64,000 bases of DNA from an uncultured Bacilli bacterium (lineage in GTDB: Bacteria > Bacillota_I > Bacilli_A > RF39 > UBA660): positions 139,736 through 203,735 of the forward strand of contig CAKOMW010000002.1 of the NCBI GenBank assembly GCA_934096805.1, read 5' to 3'. The notes below the pieces were generated by a model. It was not told the origin of the DNA, ran no database searches, and was given only the letters and a program-made list of their open reading frames with translations. The position numbers were made by a program, and so were the translations under genes. This document shows, piece by piece, positions 1,085-63,050 of this stretch. Each line of letters starts with the position of its first letter. Within the stretch, counting starts at the first letter, position 1.

Positions 1085-1260
1085 TGCATGATGTAACTAT
1101 ATACTATATAAAAGCACAATGCAAATGAGCAAAAATGACATTTGGTATAAAAAACAGTATACAAAATCAAGAATTGCTCTAAGACAAAAATAACTTTTAA
1201 TATAAAAAAAGCATACTAAAAAGTATTGTTTTGTATAAATTAAACAAATTTCTTGAAAAA
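1085..1260. repeat. degenerate solo copy of the Rpn-element leader
   Basis: tataaaagcacaatgcaaatgagc matches the leader core tataaaaacacaatgcaaatgagcaa found upstream of every Rpn-family ORF in the window; no associated ORF. Confidence 0.35.
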
Positions 1261-1379: not shown

Positions 1380-1389
1380 GGGGGGGGGG
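1380..1389 (+). repeat. poly-G homopolymer (10 G) separating an upstream ATG (1359) from the copy-A reading frame
   Basis: Seen directly. ATG at 1359 is in frame 0 and stops at 1401. The long ORF is open from 1366 in the +1 frame and encodes a signal-anchor TM segment (KTIKIISIIILLILIVISISFALG) before the annotated ATG at 1582. 11 G or 8 G would fuse ATG-1359 to the long frame. Confidence 0.6.
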
Positions 1390-1581: not shown

Positions 1582-2802
1582 ATGCTAGTAAGTAAATATC
1601 CCATATCAAAAGAAGAAGCATTAAAGTATAATGCAAAAGAAATAAATATAACAAACAATTCTACATGTGATACAGCTTATTATAAAGTAACAATAAAAGA
1701 CTTAGTAAATTCATCTATAAATAAAGATAAGATTAACTATCAAGTAATAGATAAAAGTACAAATACAGAAACAATAGATAAAAACCCAGATAACTTTAAT
1801 ATAAGTGATTCACTTACTAAAGGAAATACCAAAACATATACAATAAGACTATGGATAGATGAAAGTGCAACCAATACAGATTTATTTATAAATGGAAATA
1901 CAACAAAACCAATAGAATATAAATATGCACTTAACATAGAATCAAGTGATGAAGAGATAAAAGGAGCAGGCATGACAGCAACAGAATTTGCCCAAGCAAA
2001 TGTAGGACAAAATGGCCTAGAACTAGTAACTCATACAATAGATAATACCCTTCAAGTAGATAATAAATTTGCAACAGAATATAGATACAGAGGAGGAGAC
2101 TCAGTAGTAAAGAACTATGTAACATTTAATAATGAAATATGGAGAATAATAGGAATAATACCAACTGAAGATACCTCAGGTAATGTAGAAAATAGAATTA
2201 AGATAATAAGAGATACTTCAATAGGAAATATGAAATGGAATACAAATGATACTAATGATTGGACAAGTGCAACTTTAAATACATACTTAAATAATGATTA
2301 TTATAATACGTTAACAAGTGATGCCAAAAACATGATAGGAACAACAAAATACTATCTTGGAGGATATAACTCTGCAGGTATAACATCTGATGTAATGTGG
2401 CAATATGAAAGAAAGAATGATGCTAATCGAAGTGGATATTATTATGGTACAAATCCAATAATGCAAAATGATGCGAATAAAAAGATAGCAATAATGTATG
2501 CCAGTGATTATGGATATGGAGCATCAAAAGAATGTACAAGTAATGTAGGTGATTATGGGAACAATGCAAGTTGTAAAACAACAAATAATTGGTTAGACAA
2601 AAGTCAAGATACATGGTTGCTTCCGCAGTATTCAGACCTTTCCAACTATGCTTTCCGTGTGAACTCGGCTGGCGATGTCAGTAACAACAGCGTCGACGGC
2701 AGCTACGAACGTGCGGTCCGCCCAGTCCTAAGTCTGTCATCTAACGTAAAGATCTCAGGTGGAGAAGGGACTTTCAGTAAACCATACACGTTGTCACAAT
2801 AA
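1582..2802 (+). CDS. Surface protein paralog A with C-terminal C-type-lectin-like domain (currently N-terminally truncated / phase-OFF). The open frame extends back to 1366
   Basis: C-terminal 250 aa about 85-90 percent identical to 49720-51150 (TEYRYRGGDSVVKNYVTFNNE...AVRPVLSLSSNVKISGGEGT); GC-rich 3' end with hypervariable NNC-codon block at 2644-2712. Confidence 0.75.
   Translation: MLVSKYPISKEEALKYNAKEINITNNSTCDTAYYKVTIKDLVNSSINKDKINYQVIDKSTNTETIDKNPDNFNISDSLTKGNTKTYTIRLWIDESATNTDLFINGNTTKPIEYKYALNIESSDEEIKGAGMTATEFAQANVGQNGLELVTHTIDNTLQVDNKFATEYRYRGGDSVVKNYVTFNNEIWRIIGIIPTEDTSGNVENRIKIIRDTSIGNMKWNTNDTNDWTSATLNTYLNNDYYNTLTSDAKNMIGTTKYYLGGYNSAGITSDVMWQYERKNDANRSGYYYGTNPIMQNDANKKIAIMYASDYGYGASKECTSNVGDYGNNASCKTTNNWLDKSQDTWLLPQYSDLSNYAFRVNSAGDVSNNSVDGSYERAVRPVLSLSSNVKISGGEGTFSKPYTLSQ
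2644..2712 (+). other. hypervariable block (DGR VR-like) in copy A
   Basis: 69 nt differing at about half of positions from the equivalent block of copy B, while the following 40 nt are identical; 13 of 23 codons are NNC (aac, ggc, gtc, agc, gac, tac...). Confidence 0.55.
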
Positions 2803-6223: not shown

Positions 6224-6267
6224 TTTTATAAAATAAAATGAAGATTGACACTGTTACAAAAAATATA

Positions 6268-6596
6268 TAATTAAGCTATATGAGAAGTTATTATTAATAT
6301 TTAATGAAAATGATAATCAGTTTCTTAAAGATTTAAGTAAGGGTGATGAGATAATGGAAAAGTATGTTAAAGAATCTAAAGAAGTAAGTGAACAAGATGA
6401 AGTAATAGGAATGTATGATAAGGAGTTACATGATGAAAAGCTTCGTTTGGCAGAAAATGATGAGTACAGAGAAAATGGAAAACAAGAAAAAGCTAAAGAA
6501 ACTGCACTTAAAATGCTTCAAGATAATTTAGATTTAGATACTATTTCTAAGTATACTGAACTTTCTATTGAAGAATTAAAGAGTTTACGACAATAG
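6268..6596 (+). pseudogene. 3' fragment of an Rpn/YhgA-like (PD-(D/E)XK, Transposase_31-type) gene, subfamily II
   Basis: frame open from 6249; KLYEKLLLIFNENDNQFLKDLSKGDEIMEKYVKESKEVSEQDEVIGMYDKELHDEKLRLAE is near-identical to the C-terminal third of the intact copy at 38113-39054; the N-terminal two thirds are absent. Confidence 0.7.
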
Positions 6597-16359: not shown

Positions 16360-17512
16360 AAAAAAGTATAAGTTTTTTAAATTATATATAAAACAATATT
16401 TTTAATAAAAAAATAAGAATCAAATAAGAAAATTCTCTTAAGGGAAATATCTATTTTGGTTCTTTTTTATGTATTTAAAACTTAAAATTACTCATTTGCA
16501 TTGCATTTTTATATGTTATATATTGGTTTTGAAAGGAGGGAAAAGTATGAATCTTATTGGTGATAAGAAAGCTGTTTTAGATAAAGCTATGTCTAAAAAT
16601 GATGCTTATGAACTTGAAGATAGATATGATGGTTATAAAATACCAATTGTATCAGATGCAATGTTTAGAACAATGTTTTATAATGAATCAAGAAAGAAAT
16701 ATGGATGCTATTTAATTGCACTTCTACTAAAGAAAGACTTTAATGAAATCTATAATAATACTACTTTAATAAAAGCTAATATAGATGAAGAAAAAGAAAA
16801 TAAATCTAGAAAGACAGTAGACTATTTATGTAGAATAGATGATGTAGTAGTCAATGTAGAAATGAATAAAAATGCATCCAAGACAAGTTTAGCAAGAAAT
16901 CTAGGTTATATGTTTTCATTATATAATGGTGGAATGACTAAAGGAGATGATTATTTCTTTGAAACTTGTATTCAAATTAACATAAATAACTTTACATTTC
17001 AAGATAAAAACGAAGTATTAGATGAGTATATGATAGTTAATCTAAAAGACAGTGAAGAAGTGTATACAAATAAAATACATATTTATAATATTTACTTGCC
17101 AAATATAAGAAAAAAAGATTATAATAGTCTTGAGGAATATGAGAAGTTATTATTAGTATTTAATGAAAATGATAATAATATTCTTAATGAATTGAGTAAG
17201 GGTGATAAGATTATGAAAGAATATATTGATGATTCTAGAAAAGCAAGTGAACAAGATGAAGTAATAGGCATGTATGACAAAGAGTTGCACGAAGAAAGAT
17301 TAAGAAAATCAGAGTTAAGAGAAGCTAATGAGAATGGAATACAGCAAGGAATACAACAAGGTCGTAGCGAAGGCATCAAAGAAGGTATCGAGAAAACTGC
17401 CCTTAACATGATTCAAAAAAACATTGATTTAAACATCATCTCAGAATGCACAGGTCTTTCATTAGATGAACTAAACAAATTGAAATAGATTAATTTCTAT
17501 TTCTTTTTACTT
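16360..17512 (+). mobile_element. Rpn-family element copy 1 (leader + nuclease gene + 3' hairpin)
   Basis: about 190-bp leader nearly identical (as reverse complement) to the leaders at 39064-39270, 46990-47210, 47690-47868 and 62828-63050; 3' inverted repeat gaaatagattaatttctatttc + T-run at 17482-17510. Confidence 0.65.
16547..17488 (+). CDS. Rpn/YhgA-like recombination-promoting nuclease / putative transposase (PD-(D/E)XK, Transposase_31 type), subfamily I
   Basis: ATG with RBS aaaggaggg; N-terminal IPIVSDAMFRTMF and VDYLCRIDDVVVNVEMNKN (D...E.K PD-(D/E)XK-like) and a C-terminal G-rich repeat GIQQGIQQGRSEGIKEGIEK followed by TGLSLDELNKL, typical of Rpn proteins. The ORF-track start at 16469 includes leader sequence. 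Confidence 0.65.
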   Translation: MNLIGDKKAVLDKAMSKNDAYELEDRYDGYKIPIVSDAMFRTMFYNESRKKYGCYLIALLLKKDFNEIYNNTTLIKANIDEEKENKSRKTVDYLCRIDDVVVNVEMNKNASKTSLARNLGYMFSLYNGGMTKGDDYFFETCIQININNFTFQDKNEVLDEYMIVNLKDSEEVYTNKIHIYNIYLPNIRKKDYNSLEEYEKLLLVFNENDNNILNELSKGDKIMKEYIDDSRKASEQDEVIGMYDKELHEERLRKSELREANENGIQQGIQQGRSEGIKEGIEKTALNMIQKNIDLNIISECTGLSLDELNKLK

Positions 17513-38087: not shown

Positions 38088-39270
38088 AGACAAAAAAAGA
38101 AATAGAAATAATCTATTTCAATTGGTTTAGTTCCTCTAATGAAAGACCTGTACATTCTGAAATATCAGTAATATCATAACCTTTTTGAAGCATTTTAAGT
38201 GCAGTTTCTTTGATGCCTTCATCATGTCCTATATCGTGTCCTTCTTTAAAGCCTTTTTCTCTGTACTCATCAATTTCCGCTAAACGAAGCTTTTCATCAT
38301 GTAACTCTTTATCATACATTCCTATTACTTCATCTTGTTCACTTGCTTCTTTTGATTCTTTAACATACTTTTCCATTATCTCATCACCCTTACTTAAATC
38401 TTTAAGAAGTTGATTATCATTTTCATTAAATATTAATAATAACTTCTCATATAGTTTAAGTTTATTATAATCTTTTTTTCTTATATTTGGCAAGTATATA
38501 TTAATAATTCTTATCTTATTACTATATATTTGAAAATCATTAATATCTTTGGGTATATGATTAATATTTGTTATATAGCATTCTTCTAGAACATCTTTTC
38601 TACCTCTGAATCTAAAGTTATTTATGTTTATTTGAATTACTTCATTAAAGTTATACTTCTTTCCTCTTTTCATATTTGCACTATATAAAGAAAACATATA
38701 ACCTAGATTTCTTTCTAAACTAGACTTTGAAGTATTATTATTAACTTCAACATTAAGTATCTTACCTTTAATCTTACACAATAAATCTACTGTCTTATTA
38801 CTTTCTTCATTTTTATACTTATCTATATTATTTTTTATAAACTTAGTATTTTTTAATACCTCATTATAATCCTCATTAAATATAGAAGCAATTAAATAAC
38901 AGATATACTCCATTCTAGATTCATTATTAATCATAGTCTTAAACATAGAATCAGATACAATTGGTATTTTATAGCCTTTGTAATAGTCAAGTAACTTATA
39001 ACTATTTGTTTTAGATATTTCTTTATCTAAAGTACATTCTCTAAGATCTAACATAATTTTCACCTCCTTTCATAGAAATATTTACCCCTTTTCTAATTCA
39101 ATATATACCATATAAAAACGCAATGCAAATGAACAATTTTAAGTTTTAAATACACAAAAAAGAACCAAAACAGATATTTTCCTTAAGGGAATTTTCTTAT
39201 TTGATTCTTATTTTTTTATTAAAAATATTGTTTTATATAGAATTTAAAAAACTTATACTTTTTAATTACT
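38088..39270 (-). mobile_element. Rpn-family element copy 2 (subfamily II)
   Basis: same leader (39064-39270) and 3' hairpin gaaatagaaataatctatttc (38099-38119) + T-run as the other copies. Confidence 0.6.
38113..39054 (-). CDS. Rpn/YhgA-like PD-(D/E)XK nuclease / putative transposase, subfamily II
   Basis: IPIVSDSMFKTMINNE, VDLLCKIKGKILNVEVNNN, C-terminal GFKEGHDIGHDEGIKE...TGLSLEELNQLK; ATG 7 nt after aggaggtg. Confidence 0.6.
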   Translation of the reverse strand: MLDLRECTLDKEISKTNSYKLLDYYKGYKIPIVSDSMFKTMINNESRMEYICYLIASIFNEDYNEVLKNTKFIKNNIDKYKNEESNKTVDLLCKIKGKILNVEVNNNTSKSSLERNLGYMFSLYSANMKRGKKYNFNEVIQININNFRFRGRKDVLEECYITNINHIPKDINDFQIYSNKIRIINIYLPNIRKKDYNKLKLYEKLLLIFNENDNQLLKDLSKGDEIMEKYVKESKEASEQDEVIGMYDKELHDEKLRLAEIDEYREKGFKEGHDIGHDEGIKETALKMLQKGYDITDISECTGLSLEELNQLK

Positions 39271-42072: not shown

Positions 42073-42159
42073 TAAGCATTACCTCCATTCACATTATAGC
42101 ATAATAATTTATAATTGGAAATACCTTTAAGAAAAAAAGACTTAATCAAAAGTCTTTAA

Positions 42160-45135
42160 TTAGCATTTATATTCATAAGTTTTTTTAGTTATGGAAGTCT
42201 TTTTGCTACTACAAGTTGAATATGTTTTAGTAGCTCCTTGTCTTCCACTTGTAGAACAACTAGACACATTACTTGTTGAAGATGTATAGTTTCCATATCT
42301 AGAACATGATTCTTCACATTTTTGCATCTTGCACTTTCTTTTAGTACCAGTACCAGACCAGTAATATTTATATAAATTTTTAGTAGAAGAAGTACAATAC
42401 TTTATAGATACACCTGAACTACAATAACGAGTAGCCGCGTTTGATGAAGAACCCCAACTATAATCATGTCCTGTACAACTTCCAGTATAAGTAGTTTTTA
42501 CATAATATGATGATGAACTACAAGTAACTTTAGTAGAACCGTCATTTGTTTCTCTACAACTACTAGGATATGTAGTGCTAACTAATTTCCAAGTTTTAGT
42601 ACATGGTTGATGATATGTCTTAGATTTAGTAGCAGTATTTCCTACAACATCCTTACATTTAGCAGTTACTGTACCACCTGTTGTATTAAAATGACTTGTA
42701 TATGATTCCCCACTTGGAGAAGTAATACTTTTTGTATCAACACCACTTCCAGAGTCTGTACATGTAAATGAAATCTTAGTTGAACCTTTTATTTCAGTTT
42801 TTTCTGGCGAAATAGTAATAACTGGGTCTTTCTTGTCTATTTTCATACTAAATTTAGCAGAAGTAGCTTTATTTCCAGCGTTGTCTACACAAGTAGCAGT
42901 TACCGAATCAGTCCAATTTGAACCATCACTCACTTTAGTAGTGAAATAACTATGTACAGTATCTCCTGTTGAAGGACTTACCATTGATTTTGATTTTACA
43001 CCACTTGTAGCATCAGCAGCACTTAATGATACTTTAATATCAGACATAGTCCATTTACCTGAAGTATATTTACTATTATCTTTAGTTTTAGTACCACTTA
43101 AAGTACAAGTTGGTGGTGTTTTATCTAATTTAGCAACATATGTAACATAGCCACTACATTTTTTAGTATTATTTCCACGACATGCTTTAGCATAATAAGT
43201 AGTAGATGATGTCTCTGTACTTACTGAAGGTTTAGTTGTACTATATATATTATTAGCAGAAGTACCATAATAATATGTTACATTTGAACCACTTCCACTT
43301 GCTTCCAAAGTGTAATCAGCTTTATGCCATTTACCACTTGAAATACTATCACTTGCTGCCAGTGTTGGAGCATCAGGTGCTTTTTCCTCAATTTGATTAA
43401 TATAAGTACTACAATTAGCAGTGTTTCCAACCTCACTTTTAACATGTAAATAATAGAAACCATTTTCATCAACTGTATTATAAACTGTTTGATAATGTTC
43501 ACTTGTATTCATAAAATAACTAGGATCAGAATAACCATTTGTCCAAAGATATCCACTAAGACCAACCTCATCCCTCATTGTACCTGTAAGAGTAGCAGAA
43601 GTCTTATCCTCATCATAAGTAACAGTAATATTGCAACTTGGCATTTTACTCTTATCAACCATTTTTACGTTATCACTATTTATAACACCATTTCCATTAT
43701 TACCAACATTATCTTTTATATTCTTAGTATCAAAACTTAAATATGCATAAGCACCATCTTTATTTTTTTCATAAGCTTTTATTATAAAATTATTAGAAGT
43801 ACTTAAATTTGATACATATTCTATTTTACTAAAATCAGTATAAGTTACATCTGATATATTAAACGAACTCTTATCAATACCATTTGTATCACTACAAGAT
43901 AAACTATAAACTACATAATCAGTTATATTATCTGAAATATCTAATTGTGTTTTTAATGAAGTAAGATTAAAATCTGAATATGGTCCTTTAAACACACATA
44001 CTGGACCAGTATTATCAATAATAAGACCTGCACTATCACTAACCATATCATTACCATTATCATATTCATCATATATTTGATTAGCATTATATTTTAATTT
44101 AAATATTCCATCACTTTCATTAATGACAACTTTTATAATTGCACTTACCTTTTTTTCACTCACATACTGCTTATTAGAACTAGTGTTTACAACAACATCA
44201 CTTTTAGAATCAAAACCTTCTTTTTTAATAAAGCCATTAATTTTACTATCATCATCGCAAGTAATTTTATAATATACAGACTCACCGTTTTTAGCAATAT
44301 TCTTTAAAGTATTTAGACCTGCATCAGCATAAGCTCTAGATAACTTACAACTTGGCCCTTTCCCATCAATTTCTATCCCTAGTTCTACTTGAACATTTGG
44401 AATAGCACTTCCTTTGTATTTACTAGTAATAGAGTTTTCATTAAACTTTACTTTACCTTCTCCAAAAGCATCAGAAGATGAAGTATAAGTACCCACTACT
44501 TTAAATTGTTTCTTTTTAGAATCAATATACTCTTTTGATGTATTAGAATCTTCTAAAGATGAATATGTTCCATTAGTAGTACTAAACATATCATACAAAT
44601 TATTTTTAACAACATTTATATCTTTTCCTTTACAAGCCAATGTCACATTAGCAATATTCTTTCCTTGTTTTACTCCAATTTTCTTTTTATCACTAGTAAA
44701 ATTACAACTTAATACATTATCAAAGTTTTCTGTACAAACTTTATTACCCTTAGTATTAGTATAACCATTATCACATACTACACATCCTGTATATTTATAA
44801 CCATTACCAGACTTAGTCATATATACATAACTTTTACTACAAGAATTTCCTTTTGCATCCTTTAAATCATTTGAAATATAATTATTTGATTTTAGATACG
44901 TATACCACAAAACAATATTACCATCTTCATCAGTATTAGATATAATTTTTCTTTTATTATCACTGAAATAACTCTTAGCAGAAAGAACTAAACTTCTTTC
45001 TAATTGATCATTAACAGTATTATGTCCTTGTATTATGTATCTATTAATAACTAATATGGCAAGAGTTAATAATATTCCTACAATCACTAAAGCTACAAGT
45101 AATTCTATTATTGTAAAACCTTTTCTTTTCTTCAT
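42160..45135 (-). CDS. giant type IV prepilin-like protein (991 aa) with Ig-like repeats and Cys/Ser/Thr-rich C-terminus
   Basis: MKKRKGFTIIELLVALVIVGILLTLAILV canonical G/FTxxE prepilin signal; repeated DxxGN Ig-like motifs (TATCVDNAGNKAT, TAKCKDVVGNTAT). Confidence 0.65.
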   Translation of the reverse strand: MKKRKGFTIIELLVALVIVGILLTLAILVINRYIIQGHNTVNDQLERSLVLSAKSYFSDNKRKIISNTDEDGNIVLWYTYLKSNNYISNDLKDAKGNSCSKSYVYMTKSGNGYKYTGCVVCDNGYTNTKGNKVCTENFDNVLSCNFTSDKKKIGVKQGKNIANVTLACKGKDINVVKNNLYDMFSTTNGTYSSLEDSNTSKEYIDSKKKQFKVVGTYTSSSDAFGEGKVKFNENSITSKYKGSAIPNVQVELGIEIDGKGPSCKLSRAYADAGLNTLKNIAKNGESVYYKITCDDDSKINGFIKKEGFDSKSDVVVNTSSNKQYVSEKKVSAIIKVVINESDGIFKLKYNANQIYDEYDNGNDMVSDSAGLIIDNTGPVCVFKGPYSDFNLTSLKTQLDISDNITDYVVYSLSCSDTNGIDKSSFNISDVTYTDFSKIEYVSNLSTSNNFIIKAYEKNKDGAYAYLSFDTKNIKDNVGNNGNGVINSDNVKMVDKSKMPSCNITVTYDEDKTSATLTGTMRDEVGLSGYLWTNGYSDPSYFMNTSEHYQTVYNTVDENGFYYLHVKSEVGNTANCSTYINQIEEKAPDAPTLAASDSISSGKWHKADYTLEASGSGSNVTYYYGTSANNIYSTTKPSVSTETSSTTYYAKACRGNNTKKCSGYVTYVAKLDKTPPTCTLSGTKTKDNSKYTSGKWTMSDIKVSLSAADATSGVKSKSMVSPSTGDTVHSYFTTKVSDGSNWTDSVTATCVDNAGNKATSAKFSMKIDKKDPVITISPEKTEIKGSTKISFTCTDSGSGVDTKSITSPSGESYTSHFNTTGGTVTAKCKDVVGNTATKSKTYHQPCTKTWKLVSTTYPSSCRETNDGSTKVTCSSSSYYVKTTYTGSCTGHDYSWGSSSNAATRYCSSGVSIKYCTSSTKNLYKYYWSGTGTKRKCKMQKCEESCSRYGNYTSSTSNVSSCSTSGRQGATKTYSTCSSKKTSITKKTYEYKC

Positions 45136-45199
45136 AACAACCACCTATCCTATAATATAATTGTAACTTAAAAAATAATAAAGTGCAACAAAAAAACTG

Positions 45200-45886
45200 C
45201 TAGTTCTTAAGAATAACAGTTTTTAATTTATTTATAACTTTTTTCTCTATTCTAGATATATAAGATTGACTTATTTTTAATTTATCTGCAACATCTTTCT
45301 GAGTCATTTCAGAATACCCATAAAGACCATATCTTAAACACATTATTTCTTTATCTCTAGAATCAAGTTTTTCTAATTCATTTCTTAATAATTGCTTATC
45401 AAGCTCTTCATCAAGAGGTTTAGTAACTATATCTTTTTCTGTTCCTAAAATATCTTCAAGATGTAGTTCATTTCCATCGGCATCAAAACTCAAAGACTCT
45501 TCAAAAGAAATATCTGTTTTGCTTTTTTTTGTTTTTCTAAGAAACATTAGAATTTCATTATCTATACATCTAGAACAATAAGTAGCTAATCTAATATTTT
45601 TATCTTTAGAAAAAGTGTTAATTCCTTTGATTAATCCTATTGAACCAATACTTACTAAATCCTCTAAATCAACTTTAGTATTTTCATATCTTTTAGCTAG
45701 AAAGACCACTAATCTTAAGTTGTGTTCAATTAACTTGTTTCTAGCAGAGTTATCTCCTTTAAAAGATAAATCAATCAGTTTATCTTCTTCCTCTCTTTCA
45801 AGTGGAGGAGGTAAAATATCCGTTGCACCTACATAAAAGATATTATTTTTTCTAAATAATCTTTTTAAAAATATTATAAACTTCAC
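45200..45886 (-). CDS. sigE: RNA polymerase sporulation sigma factor SigE (pro-sigma-E); GTG start
   Basis: YVGATDILPPPLEREEEDKL pro-sequence junction, LIEHNLRLVVFLAKRYEN, DLVSIGSIGLIKGINTF, ISQSYISRIEKKV; colinear with B. subtilis SigE. Confidence 0.85.
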   Translation of the reverse strand: MKFIIFLKRLFRKNNIFYVGATDILPPPLEREEEDKLIDLSFKGDNSARNKLIEHNLRLVVFLAKRYENTKVDLEDLVSIGSIGLIKGINTFSKDKNIRLATYCSRCIDNEILMFLRKTKKSKTDISFEESLSFDADGNELHLEDILGTEKDIVTKPLDEELDKQLLRNELEKLDSRDKEIMCLRYGLYGYSEMTQKDVADKLKISQSYISRIEKKVINKLKTVILKN

Positions 45887-45889
45887 TGT

Positions 45890-46003
45890 ATCATCTCCCT
45901 ATGCAAAATTATATCAACATCTCCTAGTAAAAATTTGTCATTTGATAAACCAATTAATACATTATATTTATAACCAATATCTTTTATGAATATTTTATCA
46001 ATA
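45890..46003 (-). pseudogene. duplicated 3' end of spoIIGA (114 bp, 2 mismatches versus 47875-47988) retained directly upstream of sigE
   Basis: seen directly; encodes ...IDKIFIKDIGYKYNVLIGLSNDKFLLGDVDIILHREMIQ* whose TGA overlaps the sigE GTG; contains the sigE RBS agggag. Confidence 0.8.
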
Positions 46004-47210
46004 ATATTCACTTTTTATTCATAAAAACAAAAGAAATAGAGATTAATCTATTTCAATTTTTGTAGTTCATCTAATGAAAGACCTGTATATTTGGAAACAA
46101 CTTCTAAATCAACATTATCTTGAATCATTTGTTTAGCTATGCTTACTCTTTCTTCTTTTCTGCCTTCGCTACGACCTTGTTGTATTCCTTGTTGTATTCC
46201 ATTCTCATTAGCTTCTCTTATCTCTGATTTTCTTAATCTTTCTTCGTGTAACTCCTTATCATACATGCCTATTACTTCATCTTCTTCACTTGCTTTTCTA
46301 GAATCATCAATATATTCTTTCATAATCTTATCACCCTTACTTAATTCATTAAGAATATTATTATCATTTTCATTAAATACTAATAATAACTTCTCATATT
46401 CCTCAAGTTTATTATAATCTTTTTTTCTTATATTTGGCAAGTAAATATTATAAATATGTATTTTATTTGTATACACTTCTTCACTGTCTTTTAGATTAAC
46501 TATCATATACTCATCTAATACTTCGTTTTTATCTTGAAATGTAAAGTTATTTATGTTAATTTGAATACAAGTTTCAAAGAAATAATCATCTCCTTTAGTC
46601 ATTCCACCATTATATAATGAAAACATATAACCTAGATTTCTTGCTAAACTTGTCTTGGATGCATTTTTATTCATTTCTACATTGACTACTACATCATCTA
46701 TTCTACATAAATAGTCTACTGTCTTTCTAGATTTATTTTCTTTTTCTTCATCTATATTAGCTTTTATTAAAGTAGTATTATTATAGATTTCATTAAAGTC
46801 TTTCTTTAGTAGAAGTGCAATTAAATAGCATCCATATTTCTTTCTTGATTCATTATAAAACATTGTTCTAAACATTGCATCTGATACAATTGGTATCTTA
46901 TAACCTTCATATCTTTTTTCAAGTTCATAGGCATCTTTTTCAGACATAGCTTTATCTAAAACAGCTTTCTTATTACCAATAAGATTCATACTTTTCCCTC
47001 CTTTCAAAACCACTATATACCATATAAAAACACAATGCAAATGAGTAATTTTAAGTTTTGAACATAGAAAAAAGAACCAAAATAGGTATTTCACTTAAGG
47101 GAATTTTTTATTTTGATTCTTATTTTTTATCAAAAATATTGTTTTATATATAATTTAAAAAACTTATACTTTTTTATTCTTTTTATAAGTATCAATCAAT
47201 ACTTAGAGTG
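46004..47210 (-). mobile_element. Rpn-family element copy 3 inserted between spoIIGA and sigE
   Basis: 3' hairpin gaaatagagattaatctatttc 46033-46054 + T-run; leader 46990-47210 including ttataagtatcaatcaatacttagagtg. Confidence 0.65.
46048..46989 (-). CDS. Rpn/YhgA-like PD-(D/E)XK nuclease / putative transposase, subfamily I
   Basis: about 95 percent identical to 16547-17488 and 61874-62827 except in the C-terminal G-rich repeat region (GIQQGIQQGRSEGRKEERVSIAKQ). Confidence 0.65.
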   Translation of the reverse strand: MNLIGNKKAVLDKAMSEKDAYELEKRYEGYKIPIVSDAMFRTMFYNESRKKYGCYLIALLLKKDFNEIYNNTTLIKANIDEEKENKSRKTVDYLCRIDDVVVNVEMNKNASKTSLARNLGYMFSLYNGGMTKGDDYFFETCIQININNFTFQDKNEVLDEYMIVNLKDSEEVYTNKIHIYNIYLPNIRKKDYNKLEEYEKLLLVFNENDNNILNELSKGDKIMKEYIDDSRKASEEDEVIGMYDKELHEERLRKSEIREANENGIQQGIQQGRSEGRKEERVSIAKQMIQDNVDLEVVSKYTGLSLDELQKLK

Positions 47211-47325
47211 TATGAATTAAAGTAGTGCAATCATTTTCCTTATCCTACTTAATAAGTATTAACAATCTTTTTATTAAACTTAAATATTTTTTTATAAAAT
47301 AATTTAAAAAGACAATGTTACTTTT

Positions 47326-47526
47326 TTATTTTATTATTTGCCAATAGCCTGTTTTATCAGAGCCAACTCTTTCAATTACCGAATTATCAATTAATATTTT
47401 AAAATTTCTTTTAATTGTTCTTGCATTAACATTAGTTATATCAGCTATTTCATTTATAGCATTTAATATATTATCCATCTCATTATCAATATAATATATT
47501 GGTTTTATTTCATCAAATAAATTCAT
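47326..47526 (-). pseudogene. orphan C-terminal winged-HTH fragment (Fic/AlbA_2-associated HTH type)
   Basis: 66 aa ...NVNARTIKRNFKILIDNSVIERVGSDKTGYWQIIK with no upstream catalytic domain. Confidence 0.4.
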
Positions 47527-47560
47527 TTATATCACACCACATATAATATTAGTATATCAC

Positions 47561-47584
47561 AAATGTCACTGTAAATGTCACTGT
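47561..47584. repeat. tandem 12-mer direct repeat (aaatgtcactgt x2)
   Basis: seen directly. Confidence 0.5.
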
Positions 47585-47689
47585 ATTTATAATTCTTTGT
47601 TATAGTTAACCAATTTCATGATATATACATATCAGTTAGTAATTTATTACTAACTATAATTTAGATAATTAAAAGTTGTCCTGCTTTAA

Positions 47690-47868
47690 TCTTTCAATAA
47701 CAATATATACCATATAAAAACACAATGCAAATGAGCAATTTTAAGTTTTGAATACATAAAAAAGAATCAAAATAGATATTTCCCTTAAGGGAATTTTCTT
47801 ATTTGATTCTTATTTTTTTATTAAAAATACTGTTTTATATAGAATTTAAGAAACTTACACTTTTTTCT
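47690..47868 (-). repeat. solo Rpn-element leader abutting the spoIIGA stop codon
   Basis: ccatataaaaacacaatgcaaatgagcaattttaag...tttcccttaagggaattttcttatttgattc matches the other leaders; no downstream nuclease ORF. Confidence 0.6.
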
Positions 47869-47870
47869 AA

Positions 47871-48644
47871 CTACATCATCTCCCTATGCAAAATTATATC
47901 AACATCCCCTAGTAAAAATTTGTCATTTGATAAACCAATTAATACATTATATTTATAACCAATATCTTTTATGAAGATTTTATCAATAAAAAAACATTTC
48001 ATCAAACCATTGCCACTTATAGTATTATAGGGAACGTATATATACTTATCACTTTCTAAATTAATATTTTTATTAAGCACTAAAATAGGTTTATCAAAAT
48101 ATGGGTCATATAAATTATTACCAGTATCTAAATAACCAATTAAATTTAAAATATCAGAGCCATTATATAAAGTAACACTATAAAGATTAGATAAATTATT
48201 CTTATAACTTTTACTAAGACGAACATACAAAACTATTATAAAAATAGAAACCATTAAAATTAAAATATTATTTAAAGAAAAACCATTAGTAAAGAAAATA
48301 ACTCCCGAAGATGCTTCCCCTCTTTCAATATTAATTAAATATAAAGAACCACCAAGAATAATAGAAAGCACTATTAAATAAACAAGATTAATAAATGTAT
48401 ATTTAATACTTTTATAAGAAAAAGTAATTATAAGCATAACAATTCCTAAAAACATTTTAATAAAAAAGAATAGTAACCCTCCAATAGATAAAAAAAGAAT
48501 AAAAACAGATAATCCTCCAAACAAAGCACCAAGTATTATTCTTTTTAACTTAGCATTTCTTTTTAAAATAGTATTTATTCCATAAAGAATAATAAAATCA
48601 AATAAAAAATTAATAAAAAAAACATAATCTAAGTATATAGTCAT
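47871..48644 (-). CDS. spoIIGA: sigma-E processing peptidase SpoIIGA
   Basis: MTIYLDYVFFINFLFDFIILYGINTILKR N-terminus and aspartic protease motif GYLDTGNNLYDP, both colinear with B. subtilis SpoIIGA. Confidence 0.8.
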   Translation of the reverse strand: MTIYLDYVFFINFLFDFIILYGINTILKRNAKLKRIILGALFGGLSVFILFLSIGGLLFFFIKMFLGIVMLIITFSYKSIKYTFINLVYLIVLSIILGGSLYLINIERGEASSGVIFFTNGFSLNNILILMVSIFIIVLYVRLSKSYKNNLSNLYSVTLYNGSDILNLIGYLDTGNNLYDPYFDKPILVLNKNINLESDKYIYVPYNTISGNGLMKCFFIDKIFIKDIGYKYNVLIGLSNDKFLLGDVDIILHREMM

Positions 48645-48705
48645 AATACCACCAAGTAAATTATATAAACTATATAAATAAAAATATGTCGAAAAAAAGA
48701 TATCA

Positions 48706-49563
48706 CTATCCTATAGCAATATCTCCCTCTTTACTATTTACTTTAAGTTGATACATTCCTTTATAAGCTTTACCAATTACTACATCACCAGTAGTTTTAC
48801 CAACGCTAACTGAAGCATTTTTAACTTTACGTATAGCAATATCCCCATCATTTGTACTAATACTAGAATTATTAGTTAAATTAATTCCATTAATAGCAAT
48901 ATCTCCTGATACAGTTTTAATATTAGCTTCATCTCTTATTTTATTTACAGCAACATCTCCATCTATTGTATTAATATCTAAAACATGAACTTTATTAATA
49001 GCAATATCCCCATCATCACTCTTAATAGTGGCTTTATTAATTTTACTTAAAGCAATATCTCCGTTAGTAGTATTAATATTTACACTAATCTTGTAATCAT
49101 TACATATAGCAATATCTCCATCAGTAGACACAACATCAACAGTACCAATATAACTTTTAGGTAAGAAAAGAACTAATTTTTGTTTTAAAAAACCTTTCTT
49201 TTCAGAAAAACTATGGTCTATAGCATTAATAACTAAATTCCCTCCATTAGAAGAAGATAATTCAATATTATCCTTATCTGTACCATAATACTTAAGAATA
49301 ATCTTATCACCAGAAGTCTTTTTAATAGCAAGATCATAATATAAAGTATCAAGTTCAATGTCTTTAACCTCAGAAATATTATACTGTTTTTCAAAGACTA
49401 AATTAAGTCTTAAATCAATAACTCCACATAAACGAAGTAGCATAAGTATTACAAAAACACTTACAAAAACTAAAATAATAATATTATTCCTACTAAGTTT
49501 CTTATCTTTAGCTTTAACATCATTACTTACATCTTTTTTCTTTTCATTATCTTTTTTACTCAT
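48706..49563 (-). CDS. DUF4097-like membrane-anchored protein with GDIAI beta-helix repeats
   Basis: N-terminal TM then nine or more repeats of [T/D]NGDIAI[N/R]K. Confidence 0.5.
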   Translation of the reverse strand: MSKKDNEKKKDVSNDVKAKDKKLSRNNIIILVFVSVFVILMLLRLCGVIDLRLNLVFEKQYNISEVKDIELDTLYYDLAIKKTSGDKIILKYYGTDKDNIELSSSNGGNLVINAIDHSFSEKKGFLKQKLVLFLPKSYIGTVDVVSTDGDIAICNDYKISVNINTTNGDIALSKINKATIKSDDGDIAINKVHVLDINTIDGDVAVNKIRDEANIKTVSGDIAINGINLTNNSSISTNDGDIAIRKVKNASVSVGKTTGDVVIGKAYKGMYQLKVNSKEGDIAIG

Positions 49564-49719: not shown

Positions 49720-51150
49720 TCAACTGATACTAAGAGTATACGGACTACTTGAAGTTCCTTCTCCACCTGAAATCTTTACGTTAGATGACAGACTTAGGAC
49801 TGGGCGGACCGCAAACTCGTAGTTGTAGAAGTAGTTGGCGTTAAGGACACCGCCGGCATCAGCAACAAGGAAAGCGCCGTGGGAAATGTCTGAATACTGC
49901 GGAAGTAACCATGTATCTGCACTTTTATCTAACCAATTATTTGTTGTTTTACAACTTGCAGAGTTATTATATTTATATAAGTTCTGTGTACATTCTTTTG
50001 ATGCTCCATATCCATAATCACTTGCATACATTATAGCTATCTTTTTAGATGAATCACTTTGCATTATTGGATTTGTTCCATAATAATATCCTGTTCTATT
50101 GGCATCATTCTTTCTTTCATATTGCCACATTACATCTGATGTAATTTCTGGATAATTATTATATCCTCCAAGATAATATTTTGTTGTACCTATCATGTTT
50201 TTTGCATCAGTAGTCAAGGTATTATAATAATCATTATTTAAGTATGTATTTAATGTTGCAGTTGTCCAGTTATTTGTAATTTTTGTAGTCCAATGCATAT
50301 TCCCTATGGATTCATTTCTTACTATTTTAATTCTATTTTCTACATTGCCATCTGTATCTTCAGTAGGAATTACTCCGATGATTCTCCATACCTCATTGTT
50401 AAATGTTACATAGTTTTTTACTACTGAGTCTCCTCCCCTGTATCTGTACTCTGTAGCAAAGTTGTCATCTACTTGGAGAGTATCATCTATTCCGTGAGTA
50501 ATTTTTTCAATACCATTTGTGCCTACTGGTATATTTAATAATGGTACCATTTCTTTTGGAGCATCCTCATTATTCACATTAACTCTAAACTTATAACTAT
50601 AAGTAGCTTTGTTAAGTTTATCTGCATCAAAGTTATAGTCTAACCAAGCTCTTAGTCTATATGTTGTTTCATGTTCATTTACCGAGGTTGTAAATGTTTC
50701 TTCTTGTGATTTTATTACATAACTATTTAACTTATTTATAGTGGTAGGTCCAGTTACTAATGTTTCTGTATTGTTTTCTACTTTAGTAAGATATACTTTT
50801 ATATTACTATCTGTAAAACTAGTATAATTATTATTAATAGTTAATGGTTCTAAAACTATATTATAATTCATTTTTCTATCTTCATTAGTGGTCATCATAC
50901 TATATACTTTAAATTCAAAGTAATTAGAACTATTAATACCTTTCTTATCACTAGTAGGAAGAACATTAGTAAGACTTATTTCATTTGTTTCAGCATAAGA
51001 CATCTTTACTTGTCCAGTTGTTATTTTATTACCTAAAGTTGCTAAACCTACATTATATACTGCATAACCTGCGAATGATATAACACTAATCATAAAAAGC
51101 GACAGTGTTATCATCATTAATATTTTTTTACTTTTACTCATATTATCCAT
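49720..51150 (-). CDS. Surface protein paralog B with C-terminal C-type-lectin-like domain
   Basis: signal-anchor ILMMITLSLFMISVISFAGYAVYNVG; C-terminal half homologous to copy A; hypervariable block at 49813-49881. Confidence 0.75.
   Translation of the reverse strand: MDNMSKSKKILMMITLSLFMISVISFAGYAVYNVGLATLGNKITTGQVKMSYAETNEISLTNVLPTSDKKGINSSNYFEFKVYSMMTTNEDRKMNYNIVLEPLTINNNYTSFTDSNIKVYLTKVENNTETLVTGPTTINKLNSYVIKSQEETFTTSVNEHETTYRLRAWLDYNFDADKLNKATYSYKFRVNVNNEDAPKEMVPLLNIPVGTNGIEKITHGIDDTLQVDDNFATEYRYRGGDSVVKNYVTFNNEVWRIIGVIPTEDTDGNVENRIKIVRNESIGNMHWTTKITNNWTTATLNTYLNNDYYNTLTTDAKNMIGTTKYYLGGYNNYPEITSDVMWQYERKNDANRTGYYYGTNPIMQSDSSKKIAIMYASDYGYGASKECTQNLYKYNNSASCKTTNNWLDKSADTWLLPQYSDISHGAFLVADAGGVLNANYFYNYEFAVRPVLSLSSNVKISGGEGTSSSPYTLSIS
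49813..49881 (-). other. hypervariable block (DGR VR-like) in copy B
   Basis: 14 of 23 codons NNC (cac, ggc, ttc, gcc, gtc, aac, tac ...); flanked 3' by 40 nt identical to copy A (gcggtccgcccagtcctaagtctgtcatctaacgtaaagat). Confidence 0.55.
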
Positions 51151-52409: not shown

Positions 52410-53381
52410 TTATTCATCATCTTCAAGAGCAATTATAATATTGTGTGCTATTCTTTCTATTACAGGGACAGCAACACTATTACCAGCTTGTTTATATAGT
52501 TTAGCATCAGACATATTTTCTGGTAATTTATATTTTTTAGGATATCCTTGTGCATAGAAACATTCTAAAGGAGTAAGTTTTCTAATTCCATATTTTGTTT
52601 TTATAAGAGGAACATTGTGTCCTCCTTCTCCCATATTAGCGGTCAAGGTTGGTACTAGTTTGCTTTGATTTTTTCTTACGTATCTTCTTCTCCATTGATA
52701 TACTGTAGAATCATCGTCCATTTCTTTTTCTAGCATGTTATACATTTCATCTTTATATTTTCCTTTTGTATAATAATATTTATCTAAAACTTTGTTTTCA
52801 TAATCAAATATGTCTTTTATTTGTTTTTTTAATGGTATTGGCAAAGGCATTTTAAACTTTTCATAGTCTTTTTTTTCTCTAAAGGCTACAATATAAACTC
52901 TTTCTCTGTTTTGTGGAATATTGCCGTATTCACAGGCATTTAATATTTGGGAACTTATTTTTCCTTTATATCCTGCTTTTTCTAAACATTTTATAACAGT
53001 ATTAAATGTATTACCATTATCATGTCCAACTAAATTTTTAACATTTTCTAAAAAGATTACTCTAGGTTTTCTTTTTTTAAATATTCTTTCCATTTCAAAG
53101 AATAAATCTCCTGTTTTATCGTCTTGAAATCCTTTTCTATATCCTGCAACAGAAAAAGAAGTACATGGGAATCCCCCGACCATAATGTCGAATTCAGGTA
53201 TATCATCAATTAAAACATCATGAATATCTCTGCAGTCAACTTTATTTTTAAAATTTAATTCATATGTTTCCTTAGCAAATTTATCAAATTCATTTGCATA
53301 AACAATTTCACATTTTTTAGTGTTTAAAAAACCTAAATCAATCCCTCCGACTCCAGCGAATAAACTACATATTTTATACAT
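52410..53381 (-). CDS. DNA (cytosine-5)-methyltransferase
   Basis: motif I LFAGVGGIDLGF, motif IV GGFPCTSFS, motif VI ENV, motif X QAGNSVAVPV; start with RBS gggagg. Confidence 0.8.
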   Translation of the reverse strand: MYKICSLFAGVGGIDLGFLNTKKCEIVYANEFDKFAKETYELNFKNKVDCRDIHDVLIDDIPEFDIMVGGFPCTSFSVAGYRKGFQDDKTGDLFFEMERIFKKRKPRVIFLENVKNLVGHDNGNTFNTVIKCLEKAGYKGKISSQILNACEYGNIPQNRERVYIVAFREKKDYEKFKMPLPIPLKKQIKDIFDYENKVLDKYYYTKGKYKDEMYNMLEKEMDDDSTVYQWRRRYVRKNQSKLVPTLTANMGEGGHNVPLIKTKYGIRKLTPLECFYAQGYPKKYKLPENMSDAKLYKQAGNSVAVPVIERIAHNIIIALEDDE

Positions 53382-53462
53382 GTGATTACCTCCCCTGCGG
53401 CGTGCCGCAAATAAATACGAACTTAAAATGAGTAAATTCATCTTTTCCTTTCATATTTATTT

Positions 53463-53990
53463 TTAAATATTCTTTTTTTCAATTCTTCCTCTTCGGATAT
53501 TAAAGATAACAGTTGGTTCAATTTCCAAATCATTAATTATTTTATCAATTATACTAAAGTGTGGTCTTTTTCCTTGTTTTTGATATGATTCAACAGTGCC
53601 ATATGAAGATATTTCTATTTGTTTTAATTGTTCTGAGTTAATTCCTGTATCATATACATATAGCATATTTGTATCAAGATTAAATCTTAAAAAGACTAAG
53701 TCATCAAATTCACATTTTGGACCAAAACTACTCAAGTCTCCATCAAAATTACTTGTAGCTTTGAACTCAATCTTTTTGCCATCTCGTGTCTTAGCATCTC
53801 CCCCAGACTTTTTATTCCATAAAAGATCTAGGCAATAGCAACCCATTGGTTCACTGATTGCATCTGGCATATTCATACCTCTTGATACTAAGCTTTTAAT
53901 ATATGTATTCAAATCTTTCCATTTAAAATAAGCATCACAAGTTTCTTGTATTCTTAGTTCATCAATTTCTACTAAATAATTATTTTTCAT
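53463..53990 (-). CDS. putative type II restriction endonuclease (cognate of the adjacent C5-MTase)
   Basis: 175-aa ORF immediately upstream of and co-oriented with the MTase; small size and position typical of a type IIP REase; family not assignable from sequence alone. Confidence 0.4.
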   Translation of the reverse strand: MKNNYLVEIDELRIQETCDAYFKWKDLNTYIKSLVSRGMNMPDAISEPMGCYCLDLLWNKKSGGDAKTRDGKKIEFKATSNFDGDLSSFGPKCEFDDLVFLRFNLDTNMLYVYDTGINSEQLKQIEISSYGTVESYQKQGKRPHFSIIDKIINDLEIEPTVIFNIRRGRIEKKNI

Positions 53991-54060
53991 TCAATAATAC
54001 CTAAGTGAATTTACTCATAAATAAATTATAACATATTTTTAGTGATTTTTATAATTATTT

Positions 54061-54094
54061 TTGCTTAAAAATAAAAGAGTTATTATACTCTTTT
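54061..54094 (-). terminator. rho-independent terminator
   Basis: aaaagagt-ataata-actctttt followed by atttttaagc on the minus strand. Confidence 0.55.
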
Positions 54095-61845: not shown

Positions 61846-63050
61846 AGTGTAAAATAAAAGAAATAGAATTAATCTATTTCAATTTTTGTAGTTCTTCAAA
61901 TGAAAGACCTGTGCATTCTGAGATGATGTTTAAATCAATGTTTTTTTGAAGTAGTTTAAGAGCAGCTTCTTTAGCTTTTTCTTTTTTTCCTTGCTGTATT
62001 CCTTCTTTGATGCCTTCACTACGACCTTGTTGTATTCCATTCTCATTAGCTTCTCTTAACTCTGATTTTCTTAATCTTTCTTCGTGTAACTCTTTATCAT
62101 ACATTCCTATTACTTCATCTTCTTCACTTGCTCTTCTAGAATCATCAATATATTCTTTCATAATCTTATCACCCTTGCTTAATTCATTAAGAATATTATT
62201 ATCATTTTCATTAAATACTAATAATAACTTCTCATATTCCTCAAGTTTATTATAATCTTTTTTTCTTATATTTGGCAAGTAAATATTATAAATATGTATT
62301 TTATTTGTATACACTTCTTCACTGTCTTTTAGATTAACTATCATATACTCATCTAATACTTCGTTTTTATCTTGAAATGTAAAGTTATTTATGTTAATTT
62401 GAATACAAGTTTCAAAGAAATAATCATCTCCTTTAGTCATTCCACCATTATATAATGAAAACATATAACCTAGATTTCTTGCTAAACTTGTCTTGGATGC
62501 ATTTTTATTCATTTCTACATTGACTACTACATCATCTATTCTACATAAATAGTCTACTGTCTTTCTAGATTTATTTTCTTTTTCTTCATCTATATTAGCT
62601 TTTATTAAAGTAGTATTATTATAGATTTCATTAAAGTCTTTCTTTAGTAGAAGTGCAATTAAATAGCATCCATATTTCTTTCTTGATTCATTATAAAACA
62701 TTGTTCTAAACATTGCATCTGATACAATTGGTATTTTATAACCATCATATCTATCTTCAAGTTCATAAGCATCATTTTTAGACATAGCTTTATCTAAAAC
62801 AGCTTTCTTATCACCAATAAGATTCATACTTTTCCCTCCTTTCAAAACCAATATATAACATATAAAAATGCAATGCAAATGAGTAATTTTAAGTTTTAAA
62901 TACATAAAAAAGAACCAAAATAGATATTTCCCTTAAGAGAATTTTCTTATTTGATTCTTATTTTTTTATTAAAAATATTGTTTTATATATAATTTAAGAA
63001 ACTTATACTTCTTAATTATTTTTATAAGTATTAATCAATACTTAGAGTGT
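61846..63050 (-). mobile_element. Rpn-family element copy 4 inserted between the hrcA promoter/CIRCE region and argS
   Basis: 3' hairpin gaaatagaattaatctatttc 61860-61880; leader 62828-63050 including ttataagtattaatcaatacttagagtg. Confidence 0.65.
61874..62827 (-). CDS. Rpn/YhgA-like PD-(D/E)XK nuclease / putative transposase, subfamily I
   Basis: ATG 62827 with RBS ggaggg; C-terminal repeat variant GIQQGRSEGIKEGIQQGKKEKAKE. Confidence 0.65.
   Translation of the reverse strand: MNLIGDKKAVLDKAMSKNDAYELEDRYDGYKIPIVSDAMFRTMFYNESRKKYGCYLIALLLKKDFNEIYNNTTLIKANIDEEKENKSRKTVDYLCRIDDVVVNVEMNKNASKTSLARNLGYMFSLYNGGMTKGDDYFFETCIQININNFTFQDKNEVLDEYMIVNLKDSEEVYTNKIHIYNIYLPNIRKKDYNKLEEYEKLLLVFNENDNNILNELSKGDKIMKEYIDDSRRASEEDEVIGMYDKELHEERLRKSELREANENGIQQGRSEGIKEGIQQGKKEKAKEAALKLLQKNIDLNIISECTGLSFEELQKLK

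Follow-up and report, generated by a model that had tools for sequence, protein, structure and literature searches.

A strain-variable islet with Fic-type and Rpn-type modules, flanked by a duplicated spoIIGA 3' end, separates spoIIGA from sigE in an uncultured gut bacterium

Gene-intervening elements are known from several sporulation genes and include skin in sigK, SPβ in spsM, gin in gerE and yin in yabG. The spoIIGA–sigE pair is among the most conserved endospore gene pairs, and the two genes are commonly assumed to be tightly coupled. In the B. subtilis pathway pro-sigma-E is inactive until it is processed by SpoIIGA, and in that cascade sigE acts before the known excision events of gene-intervening elements. 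Here, a stretch of 64,000 nucleotides (termed the window) was analyzed from contig CAKOMW010000002.1 of an uncultured Bacilli bacterium, a low-GC organism of the human gut whose species has been seen in Hadza and other cohorts. In this window an insert of 1.87 kb separates spoIIGA from sigE. The favored reading, to which a probability of about 0.6 was assigned, is that the spacer is a strain-variable defense or toxin islet, captured by illegitimate or templated recombination and kept because a duplication of the spoIIGA 3' end preserves both genes.

Integrative elements, for example tRNA/tmRNA islands, preserve their target gene by means of a duplicate 3' end (Mageeney et al. 2020, PMC7192596). 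No inverted repeats or target-site duplications accompany genes of the rpn family, which do not work as autonomous transposases but as toxin–antitoxin or antiphage genes (Zhong et al. 2023, PMC10400941). RpnA of E. coli is reported to cut DNA as an endonuclease and to increase recombination that does not depend on RecA (Kingston et al. 2017, PMC5350276). The RF39, RFN20 and ML615J-28 groups, which are relatives of the source organism, are predicted to include spore-formers (PMC10868615). The locus described here combines known themes, namely defense islets, single-gene gain or loss of rpn, and foreign DNA in sporulation genes.

The relevant genes of the spoIIGA–sigE locus all lie on the minus strand of the window, the G+C content of which is 26.6% (Table 1). 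The adjacency of a co-oriented spoIIGA (peptidase U4) and SigE-type gene holds in the lineage and is broken in the window. A repeat search of the window returned a direct repeat of 120 nt (97% identity) around the insert, and blastn, with the flanks compared, gave a repeat core of 115 nt with two mismatches (98.3%, E = 4e-56). The original prediction, which had been made from the letters of the stretch alone, placed a 114-bp duplication at 45890-46003 and 47875-47988, and the alignment agrees with these limits to within 1–5 nt. The repeat spans the final ~38–39 codons of spoIIGA and terminates precisely where the spoIIGA open reading frame (ORF) ends. At 115–120 bp of host coding sequence it has no transposase-like length, and the earlier statement that it is far longer than any transposase target-site duplication holds.

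The sigE ribosome-binding site (RBS) sits inside spoIIGA, and the stop and start codons of the two genes overlap, so that a simple insertion would destroy one gene. The sigE-side copy of the repeat keeps AGGGAG and the TGA/GTG overlap within a 42-codon ORF, as had been predicted. The last 5 nt of the upstream copy are GTAGT, those of the sigE-proximal copy ACAGT, and these two substitutions provide a new TAG stop for spoIIGA: the gene ends in ATG ATG TAG, the other copy in ATG ATA CAG TGA, and the window protein terminates in HREMM, the empty-site protein in HREMIQ. The duplication would thus leave spoIIGA complete, with its new TAG and 257 residues, and sigE with its native RBS and start context. 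As in integrative elements that supply a 3' end, a duplicate of the target gene 3' end flanks the insert and gene function is preserved. In contrast to these elements, no tyrosine or serine integrase is present, the repeat is 115–120 bp of host coding sequence, the duplicate also serves the downstream gene through the RBS and the start overlap, and the insert is a mosaic of 0.5–1.9 kb and not a multigene island.

Same-species metagenome contigs were recovered by exact and near-exact protein look-ups. An empty junction was present in six of them (L007–L011 and L019), in which SpoIIGA has 258 residues (alleles P0001 and P0002; 96% identical to the window protein in L007–L010 and 99% in L011) and its stop codon overlaps the sigE start by 4 bp (TGA/GTG). 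A GTDB scan of related species, comprising 'Mycoplasma sp. CAG:611' and uncultured Tenericutes/Bacilli metagenome-assembled genomes with a SpoIIGA 36–59% identical to that of the window, found sigE directly after spoIIGA in every one (16/16). Since the pair is compact both in the same species and in the 16 relatives, the insert is derived. The comparison with relatives that had been suggested for the proposed ~1.9-kb insertion thus yielded the empty site, and the relatives have the compact junction, not the same spacer without a duplication that would have spoken for ancestral DNA. The filled arrangement was assembled independently from several samples and by different assemblers (L001–L003, L012 and L018), which rules out an assembly artefact; a left-junction 24-mer had a single match among metagenome contigs, an already known contig of GCA_013146565.1. 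The observation that sigG is missing downstream of sigE is correct and nothing special, as no second sigma gene lies within 5 kb in the same-species contigs or in the 16 related species, and its absence is therefore normal in this lineage.

Four allelic states of the junction were distinguished: empty, Fic-only, remnant, and deleted fic together with Rpn. State 0 (L007–L011, L019) is the empty site. State 1 (L014–L017 and L053) contains leader A, an intact gene for a 322-residue Fic protein, a tail of ~60 nt, the repeat and sigE, and has no Rpn gene; L004 and L005 are consistent with this state over their extent. State 2 (L013 and L021) measures ~0.55 kb, and in it leader A is followed by the first ~30 nt of fic, the start codon of which is mutated, 43 nt of unassigned origin, a 19-nt junction and the repeat. 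State 3 (the window, L001–L003, L012 and L018) contains leader A, fic with a 720-bp deletion, 43 nt of unassigned origin, the 1.19-kb Rpn unit, a junction of ~20 nt and the repeat. Common to every filled state are the left junction, in which GGGAGATGAT is joined to GTAGTTAG and the leader, the 257-residue SpoIIGA and both repeat copies, and this points to a single founding event followed by remodeling. Because the repeats are present in alleles that lack rpn, the duplication needs no Rpn gene inside the insert. A look-up with P0128 recovered only Fic-only alleles and none with full fic plus Rpn, and the 37-nt core of the 43-nt filler of L013 and L021 had no other copy in the window or the loci.

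Table 1. Features of the spoIIGA–sigE locus and of related or neighboring elements (positions are those of the window)
Feature	Position	Strand	Remarks
spoIIGA	47871-48644	-	257 aa; PF03419 E=7e-39; TIGR02854
sigE	45200-45886	-	228 aa, GTG start; best NCBIfam match SigE (NF006158), 313 bits, slightly below the equivalog cutoff of 339
Upstream repeat copy DR-L	47870-47989	-	native spoIIGA 3' end
sigE-proximal repeat copy DR-R	45885-46004	-	carries sigE RBS AGGGAG and TGA/GTG overlap
42-codon ORF (incidental)	45883-46011	-	contains DR-R
Leader A (Rpn-type upstream module)	47691-47866	-	~90% identical to leader B
Leader A palindrome/terminator-like hairpin	47746-47827	-	41-nt arms, -19.7 kcal/mol, then U-run
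Tandem 12-mer ACAGTGACATTT x2	47561-47584	-	then extended -10-like TGaTATACT; putative operator/promoter
66-aa ORF, SoFic-like fic remnant	47326-47526	-	N-terminal 26 aa fused in frame to C-terminal ~40 aa (winged helix-turn-helix)
fic tail, non-coding	47258-47325	-	common to Fic-only alleles
43 nt, origin unassigned	47215-47257	-	between fic tail and Rpn unit
Rpn unit D	46025-47214	-	~1.19 kb; absent from Fic-only alleles
Unit D: DUF6273-family gene 3' fragment	47176-47214	-	
Unit D: leader B	47001-47175	-	~175 nt
Unit D: rpn ORF	46048-46989	-	313 aa, intact; PF12784, TIGR01784
Unit D: 3' hairpin and T-run	46022-46054	-	GAAATAGA-ttaatc-TCTATTTC, -7.2 to -7.7 kcal/mol
Junction sequence TTTATGAATAAAAAGTGAATA	46005-46024	-	~20 nt; common to L013/L021 remnant alleles, absent in Fic-only alleles
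Rpn unit B	16364-17512	+	complete
Rpn unit C	38090-39260	-	complete; ~75% identical to others
Rpn unit E	61850-63050	-	complete
Degenerate Rpn 3' fragment	6265-6580	+	
Leader-core match without adjoining Rpn ORF	1098-1129	-	
Prepilin-type gene insertion	42109-45188	-	ORF 42160-45144, 994 aa, N-terminal methylation motif, directly after sigE
Type II restriction–modification pair, strain-variable insertion	52427-54091	-	relative to L007, L013, L014

The upstream part of the islet consists of leader A and a fic module. In both leaders a palindrome and a U-run are followed by a predicted promoter (TTGCAT-17-TATAGT/TATATT) and then by an RBS; the predicted promoter of leader A, TTGCAT-17-TATATT, is sigma-A-like, and the palindrome of leader B folds at -14.5 kcal/mol. 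No Rfam family was matched in a scan of 45000-48800 at E <= 1, and so the leader is not a known RNA. The copy listed as leader A had been described as a second, solo leader; the copy is present, but it is not solo, as it stands upstream of fic and joins the fic module where the Rpn RBS would stand. Likewise, the ORF that had been called an orphan helix-turn-helix (HTH) fragment exists, but is in fact fic with an in-frame deletion of 720 bp between 8-nt AAATGAAA microhomologies (junction at 47448-47455). The Fic domain was removed by this deletion, and the 66-residue ORF of the window has no match in Pfam or PADLOC. The intact Fic of 322 residues (L014–L017) has PF02661 and HTH domains.

The tandem 12-mer noted earlier is present and can be read further as the upstream element of fic. 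It is identical upstream of fic at three unrelated loci (L014, L038 and L044), and its conservation in three contexts identifies it as fic's own control region. The fic module comprises ~65–133 nt of upstream sequence plus the ORF, is 89–90% identical at the nucleotide level at unrelated loci and in other species, and loses homology 4 nt past the stop codon; no convincing terminator was found in the fic tail (-1.9 kcal/mol). These comparisons indicate a self-contained promoter-plus-fic module that would often move horizontally. The closest described system is SoFic (PADLOC PDLC03963), which the intact protein of L014 matches over residues 38–310 (E = 1.6e-39) and with which it shares a Fic domain and a C-terminal winged HTH. 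The window allele differs in having lost the Fic domain, leaving the fusion of N- and C-terminal parts, and the defense activity of the lineage's intact Fic is putative.

Elsewhere, the 322-residue Fic protein is 82–91% identical across many species-level clusters, with 4804 matches at E < 1e-20, while SpoIIGA in related lineages is only 36–68% identical. The gene occurs, among loci of other species (L038–L049), at 1060-2028 of L038 and 4001-4969 of L044, and its neighborhoods are unrelated, with a TnpB-like fragment and polA in one case and GGDEF/ABC genes in another.

The downstream part of the islet is Rpn unit D, and the prediction of an intact Rpn gene with a leader and a 3' hairpin and T-run was confirmed. 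The encoded protein matched PF12784 (E = 4e-13, 50 bits, cutoff 27.4) and TIGR01784 (65 bits, cutoff 52.1), and thus has the N-terminal PD-(D/E)XK nuclease domain by which the Rpn family is defined; a precomputed match to PF27070 (HTH_Rpn_C) was also found. An exact look-up of the window protein gave no record, and a PDB sequence search gave no match. Six copies of the leader core were counted in the window, against an expectation of none, and the leaders are ~90% identical between the copies compared. Units B, D and E, together with the unit of L055 from another strain, are 92–94% identical at the nucleotide level over ~1.19 kb, with sharp limits and at unrelated loci. The Rpn proteins of B, D and E are near-identical up to residue ~262 and then carry hypervariable G-x-x-x repeats, the units of which (GIQQ, GRSE, GIKE and GKKE) vary in number and sequence, giving proteins of 313 versus 317 residues. 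Four-residue repeats that vary between paralogs are the C-terminal characteristic of RpnL/RpnS (PMC10400941), and the window protein therefore agrees with that pattern. A conserved Met (within EVIGMYDKELHEE) ~22 residues ahead of the repeats is a candidate internal start for RpnS.

No flanking direct repeats above chance were found around units B, C and E, and no terminal inverted repeats on the Rpn units; the absence of inverted repeats and target-site duplications around B, C and E matches the trait of the Rpn family. The 5' ends of the units are ragged: B and C start at AAAAAGTATAAG, and D, E and L055 reach ~40 nt further. These extra ~40 nt are the last codons (ending in PYTLSI and a stop) of a DUF6273-family gene, which in L055 is the real upstream neighbor of the Rpn unit. 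As codons of a neighboring gene are carried along, the units were copied with variable flanks and not cut at defined ends. An insertion sequence or transposon was considered and rejected, given the differing 5' extents, the absence of terminal inverted repeats, and a repeat of 115–120 bp at one site and none at three. Metagenome contigs often end at Rpn units, and L007, for example, breaks inside one.

Compared with RpnL/RpnS (PMC10400941, PMC5350276), the units share the N-terminal PD-(D/E)XK and C-terminal Rpn HTH domains, hypervariable four-residue repeats toward the C terminus, a high copy number within a genome, gain and loss as single-gene units without inverted repeats or target-site duplications, and other defense genes nearby, here the SoFic-like Fic and a type II restriction–modification (R-M) system 4 kb away. 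They differ in belonging to the PF12784/TIGR01784 branch in an uncultured Bacilli lineage of 27% GC, and in having a highly conserved leader of ~175 nt, made up of a hairpin and a promoter, which also occurs apart from rpn, in front of fic. Toxicity and an internal RpnS start are putative here.

One interpretation of these data is that, in the founding event, foreign DNA was linked on one side to the final base of the spoIIGA ORF and on the other to a point ~115–120 bp upstream, and we infer that two independent joints were made this distance apart. The joints could have formed independently by illegitimate recombination, or could stem from unequal sister exchange or from break repair with a switch of template; a transposase would not be a candidate. 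Only an insertion that duplicated the overlap could have persisted in a spore-former, and selection for sporulation would have kept the configuration; selection at an overlapping gene pair could in this way fix an unusually long 'target duplication'. Allele comparison shows that the islet was later remodeled by gain or loss of a 1.25-kb Rpn segment, an indel at which comparison of States 1 and 3 revealed no target-site duplication, by the microhomology deletion in fic, and by a large deletion that led to the remnant alleles. This remodeling would reflect sloppy recombination similar to that of the founding event. The occurrence of the fic module at unrelated loci, the DUF6273 codons dragged along with the Rpn units and the fic microhomologies together argue for a mosaic, illegitimate origin of the parts. 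The Rpn gene is probably cargo and did not cause the insertion. If so, it would be sloppy recombination, and not transposition, that spreads defense genes such as Fic and Rpn as modules together with their promoters.

Divergence among filled alleles reaches ~10% in the region from the leader to the fic start, and relative to the clade the insert is therefore old. Single-nucleotide polymorphisms (SNPs) of the repeat are common to left copies, right copies and empty sites, which agrees with an old insertion whose repeats take part in recombination. Homologous recombination between the repeats could excise the islet exactly and give rise to empty alleles. With differences of 9 nt in spoIIGA and 1 nt in sigE, the empty L011 lies closer to the Fic-only L014 than filled alleles lie to each other (up to 20 nt). 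The nested position of empty alleles within the filled ones suggests that the islet can be lost precisely by way of the repeat, and some of the empty alleles were probably produced in this way.

The function of both genes appears to have been retained. The spoIIGA and sigE ORFs are complete in all filled alleles, spoIIGA is likewise intact in the empty ones, and SigE is 100% identical in sequence across States 0–3 of the close clade, with 0–6 nucleotide differences between the genes. The predicted change in the transcription context of sigE was found, in that terminator-like hairpins now separate it from the spoIIGA promoter; only the leader hairpin passed a terminator pattern scan. All islet modules are co-oriented with sigE, and sigE would be transcribed from promoters of the islet and its leaders, with the weak rpn hairpin (-7 kcal/mol) being read through in part. 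A promoter-like element within the repeat could be an additional or alternative source: TGaTAAAAT lies at the 5' edge of the repeat and TTCATA-18-TATAAT in its interior, matches that are at chance level in AT-rich DNA. Transcription from islet promoters, the repeat element or both is most likely, as far as can be judged from sequence. Since pro-sigma-E is inactive before processing, constitutive transcription of sigE would be tolerable, and developmental control would stay at the SpoIIGA-dependent processing step. The four natural versions of the junction in one gut species form an allelic series in which operon coupling in pro-sigma-E expression could be tested.

Several points weigh against the captured-islet reading. 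No clear diagnostic microhomology was found at the founding junctions, and the mechanism is not readable there. The nesting of empty alleles may instead reflect recombination between strains, and the comparators are all short metagenome contigs. State 3 holds both the fic tail, as in State 1, and the right junction, as in State 2, for which reason a Rpn-containing ancestor of the filled alleles is parsimonious and the Rpn unit may already have belonged to the first insert. A transcript from the spoIIGA promoter would meet three terminator-like hairpins before it reached sigE. A promoter scan gave 31 sigma-70-like sites against 32 expected from shuffled sequences, and as promoter-like sites thus occur at chance frequency in this AT-rich DNA, the scan supports no promoter claim. 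Finally, the apparent restriction of sigE changes to synonymous ones is based on very few substitutions.

The parsimony of a Rpn-containing ancestor lets the idea of the original prediction survive in a weakened form, namely that a Rpn element entered the operon and left the 115-bp duplication as a trace of RecA-independent recombination promoted by Rpn. Such an origin is unlikely. The duplication occurs without a Rpn gene (L014–L017 and L053) and without either gene (L013 and L021), no repeat flanks units B, C or E, and the 5' ends of the units are ragged and include DNA of a previous neighbor. In addition, rpn genes have no inverted repeats or target-site duplications, do not transpose autonomously and have a toxin–antitoxin or antiphage role (PMC10400941). 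The attribution was tempting, as the window has four full Rpn units, a solo leader and fragments, the units keep ~92–94% identity over ~1.19 kb with sharp limits although they stand at unrelated loci, a Rpn-type leader forms the left end of the insert, paralogs elsewhere in the genome could work in trans, and the E. coli RpnA endonuclease reportedly increases RecA-independent recombination (PMC5350276). It is nevertheless unsupported, and is corrected here.

Campbell-type integration, in which the islet and ~115 bp copied from the spoIIGA 3' end entered the chromosome on a circle by homologous recombination, is likewise improbable, even though one crossover in 115–120 bp of homology would yield precisely the observed topology. 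No integrase, replication or transfer gene was annotated by Pfam in or near the insert, no phage or plasmid collection matched it (blastn, distant mode), and no free copy of the repeat, or copy in another context, was found. The repeat stops exactly at the end of the spoIIGA ORF, the exchange of SNPs between its copies shows that they do recombine homologously, and the fragments of earlier neighbors in the Rpn units imply that capture of host DNA occurs in this lineage. A circle, however, merely shifts the question to how it gained the spoIIGA fragment.

A more speculative and quite doubtful extension is that the repeat serves as a reversible switch, through which RecA-mediated or Rpn-nuclease-stimulated recombination precisely rebuilds the translationally coupled operon, to be uncoupled again on re-acquisition of the islet, or that Rpn nucleases promote templated insertions that duplicate ~100 bp. 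A switch would produce heritable variants in sigE expression and sporulation efficiency, with defense genes hitch-hiking; Rpn-promoted templated insertion would be a way of capturing genes that has not been described before.

It is very improbable that the islet is a skin-like element which the sporulating mother cell would excise, thereby restoring the spoIIGA–sigE operon. The locus resembles the skin/gin type, a known theme in sporulation genes, in having foreign DNA within the sporulation machinery and direct repeats whose recombination would restore the native order; the repeat would permit exact restoration of the operon, and the nesting of empty alleles within filled ones would agree with this. 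However, the only ORFs of the insert are the fic remnant and rpn, and a site-specific recombinase domain is absent from the insert and its neighbors. The repeat is ~115–120 bp of a host gene and not a short att core, and the cargo is of the defense type and not a prophage. The operon is split with neither ORF interrupted, so restoring a reading frame needs no excision, and there is no indication of regulated or programmed excision here. In the B. subtilis cascade, moreover, sigE acts earlier than the known excision events of this type. That the spacer is ancestral intergenic DNA or an assembly artefact is practically dismissed by the empty sites in six same-species contigs and 16 related species and by the independent assembly of the filled structure from many samples with different assemblers.

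Two neighboring insertions were compared with that of the captured islet. The type II R-M system, which lies 4 kb from the islet, consists of a Bsp6I-like restriction endonuclease (53463-53990) and a C5 cytosine methylase (52410-53441), directly after the divIVA stop codon, and comparison with alleles that lack the insertion revealed no target duplication. The prepilin-type gene is replaced by 28 nt in L007 and has versions of 975 or at least 683 residues in L019 and L021, and no flanking repeat was found at its insertion. Within the insertions compared, the long duplication is, by alignment, specific to the spoIIGA/sigE site.

In the sister species L051 (1640-1850) and L052, whose SpoIIGA is 85% identical, spoIIGA ends in TTG ATG TAG T. 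This is the derived ATG-TAG-T end, with a breakpoint that matches the filled alleles, and it is followed by truB and not by sigE. The common breakpoint may mean that uncoupling predates the split of the species, or may be a coincidence. Leader remnants downstream of spoIIGA in L051 and L052 were sought and rejected, the local alignment being reached by 6% of shuffled sequences (p ~ 0.06).

The DUF6273-like family, fragments of which accompany the Rpn units, consists of secreted proteins that end in SGGEGTSSSPYTLSI(S/D) and a stop, with members at 49720-51150 (-) and 1582-2802 (+) of the window and at 1785-3296 of L055. Upstream of the ORF at 1582-2802, a G10 homopolymer is present at 1380-1389 (+) in this genome of 27% GC, 20 nt past an ATG at 1360 that is itself preceded by AAAGAGGAGG. 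The G10 frame stops after 14 codons, and G9 would continue into the signal-peptide-like N terminus of a 406-residue DUF6273-family paralog. The tract looks like that of a surface or secreted protein gene that would be phase-variable by slipped-strand mispairing.

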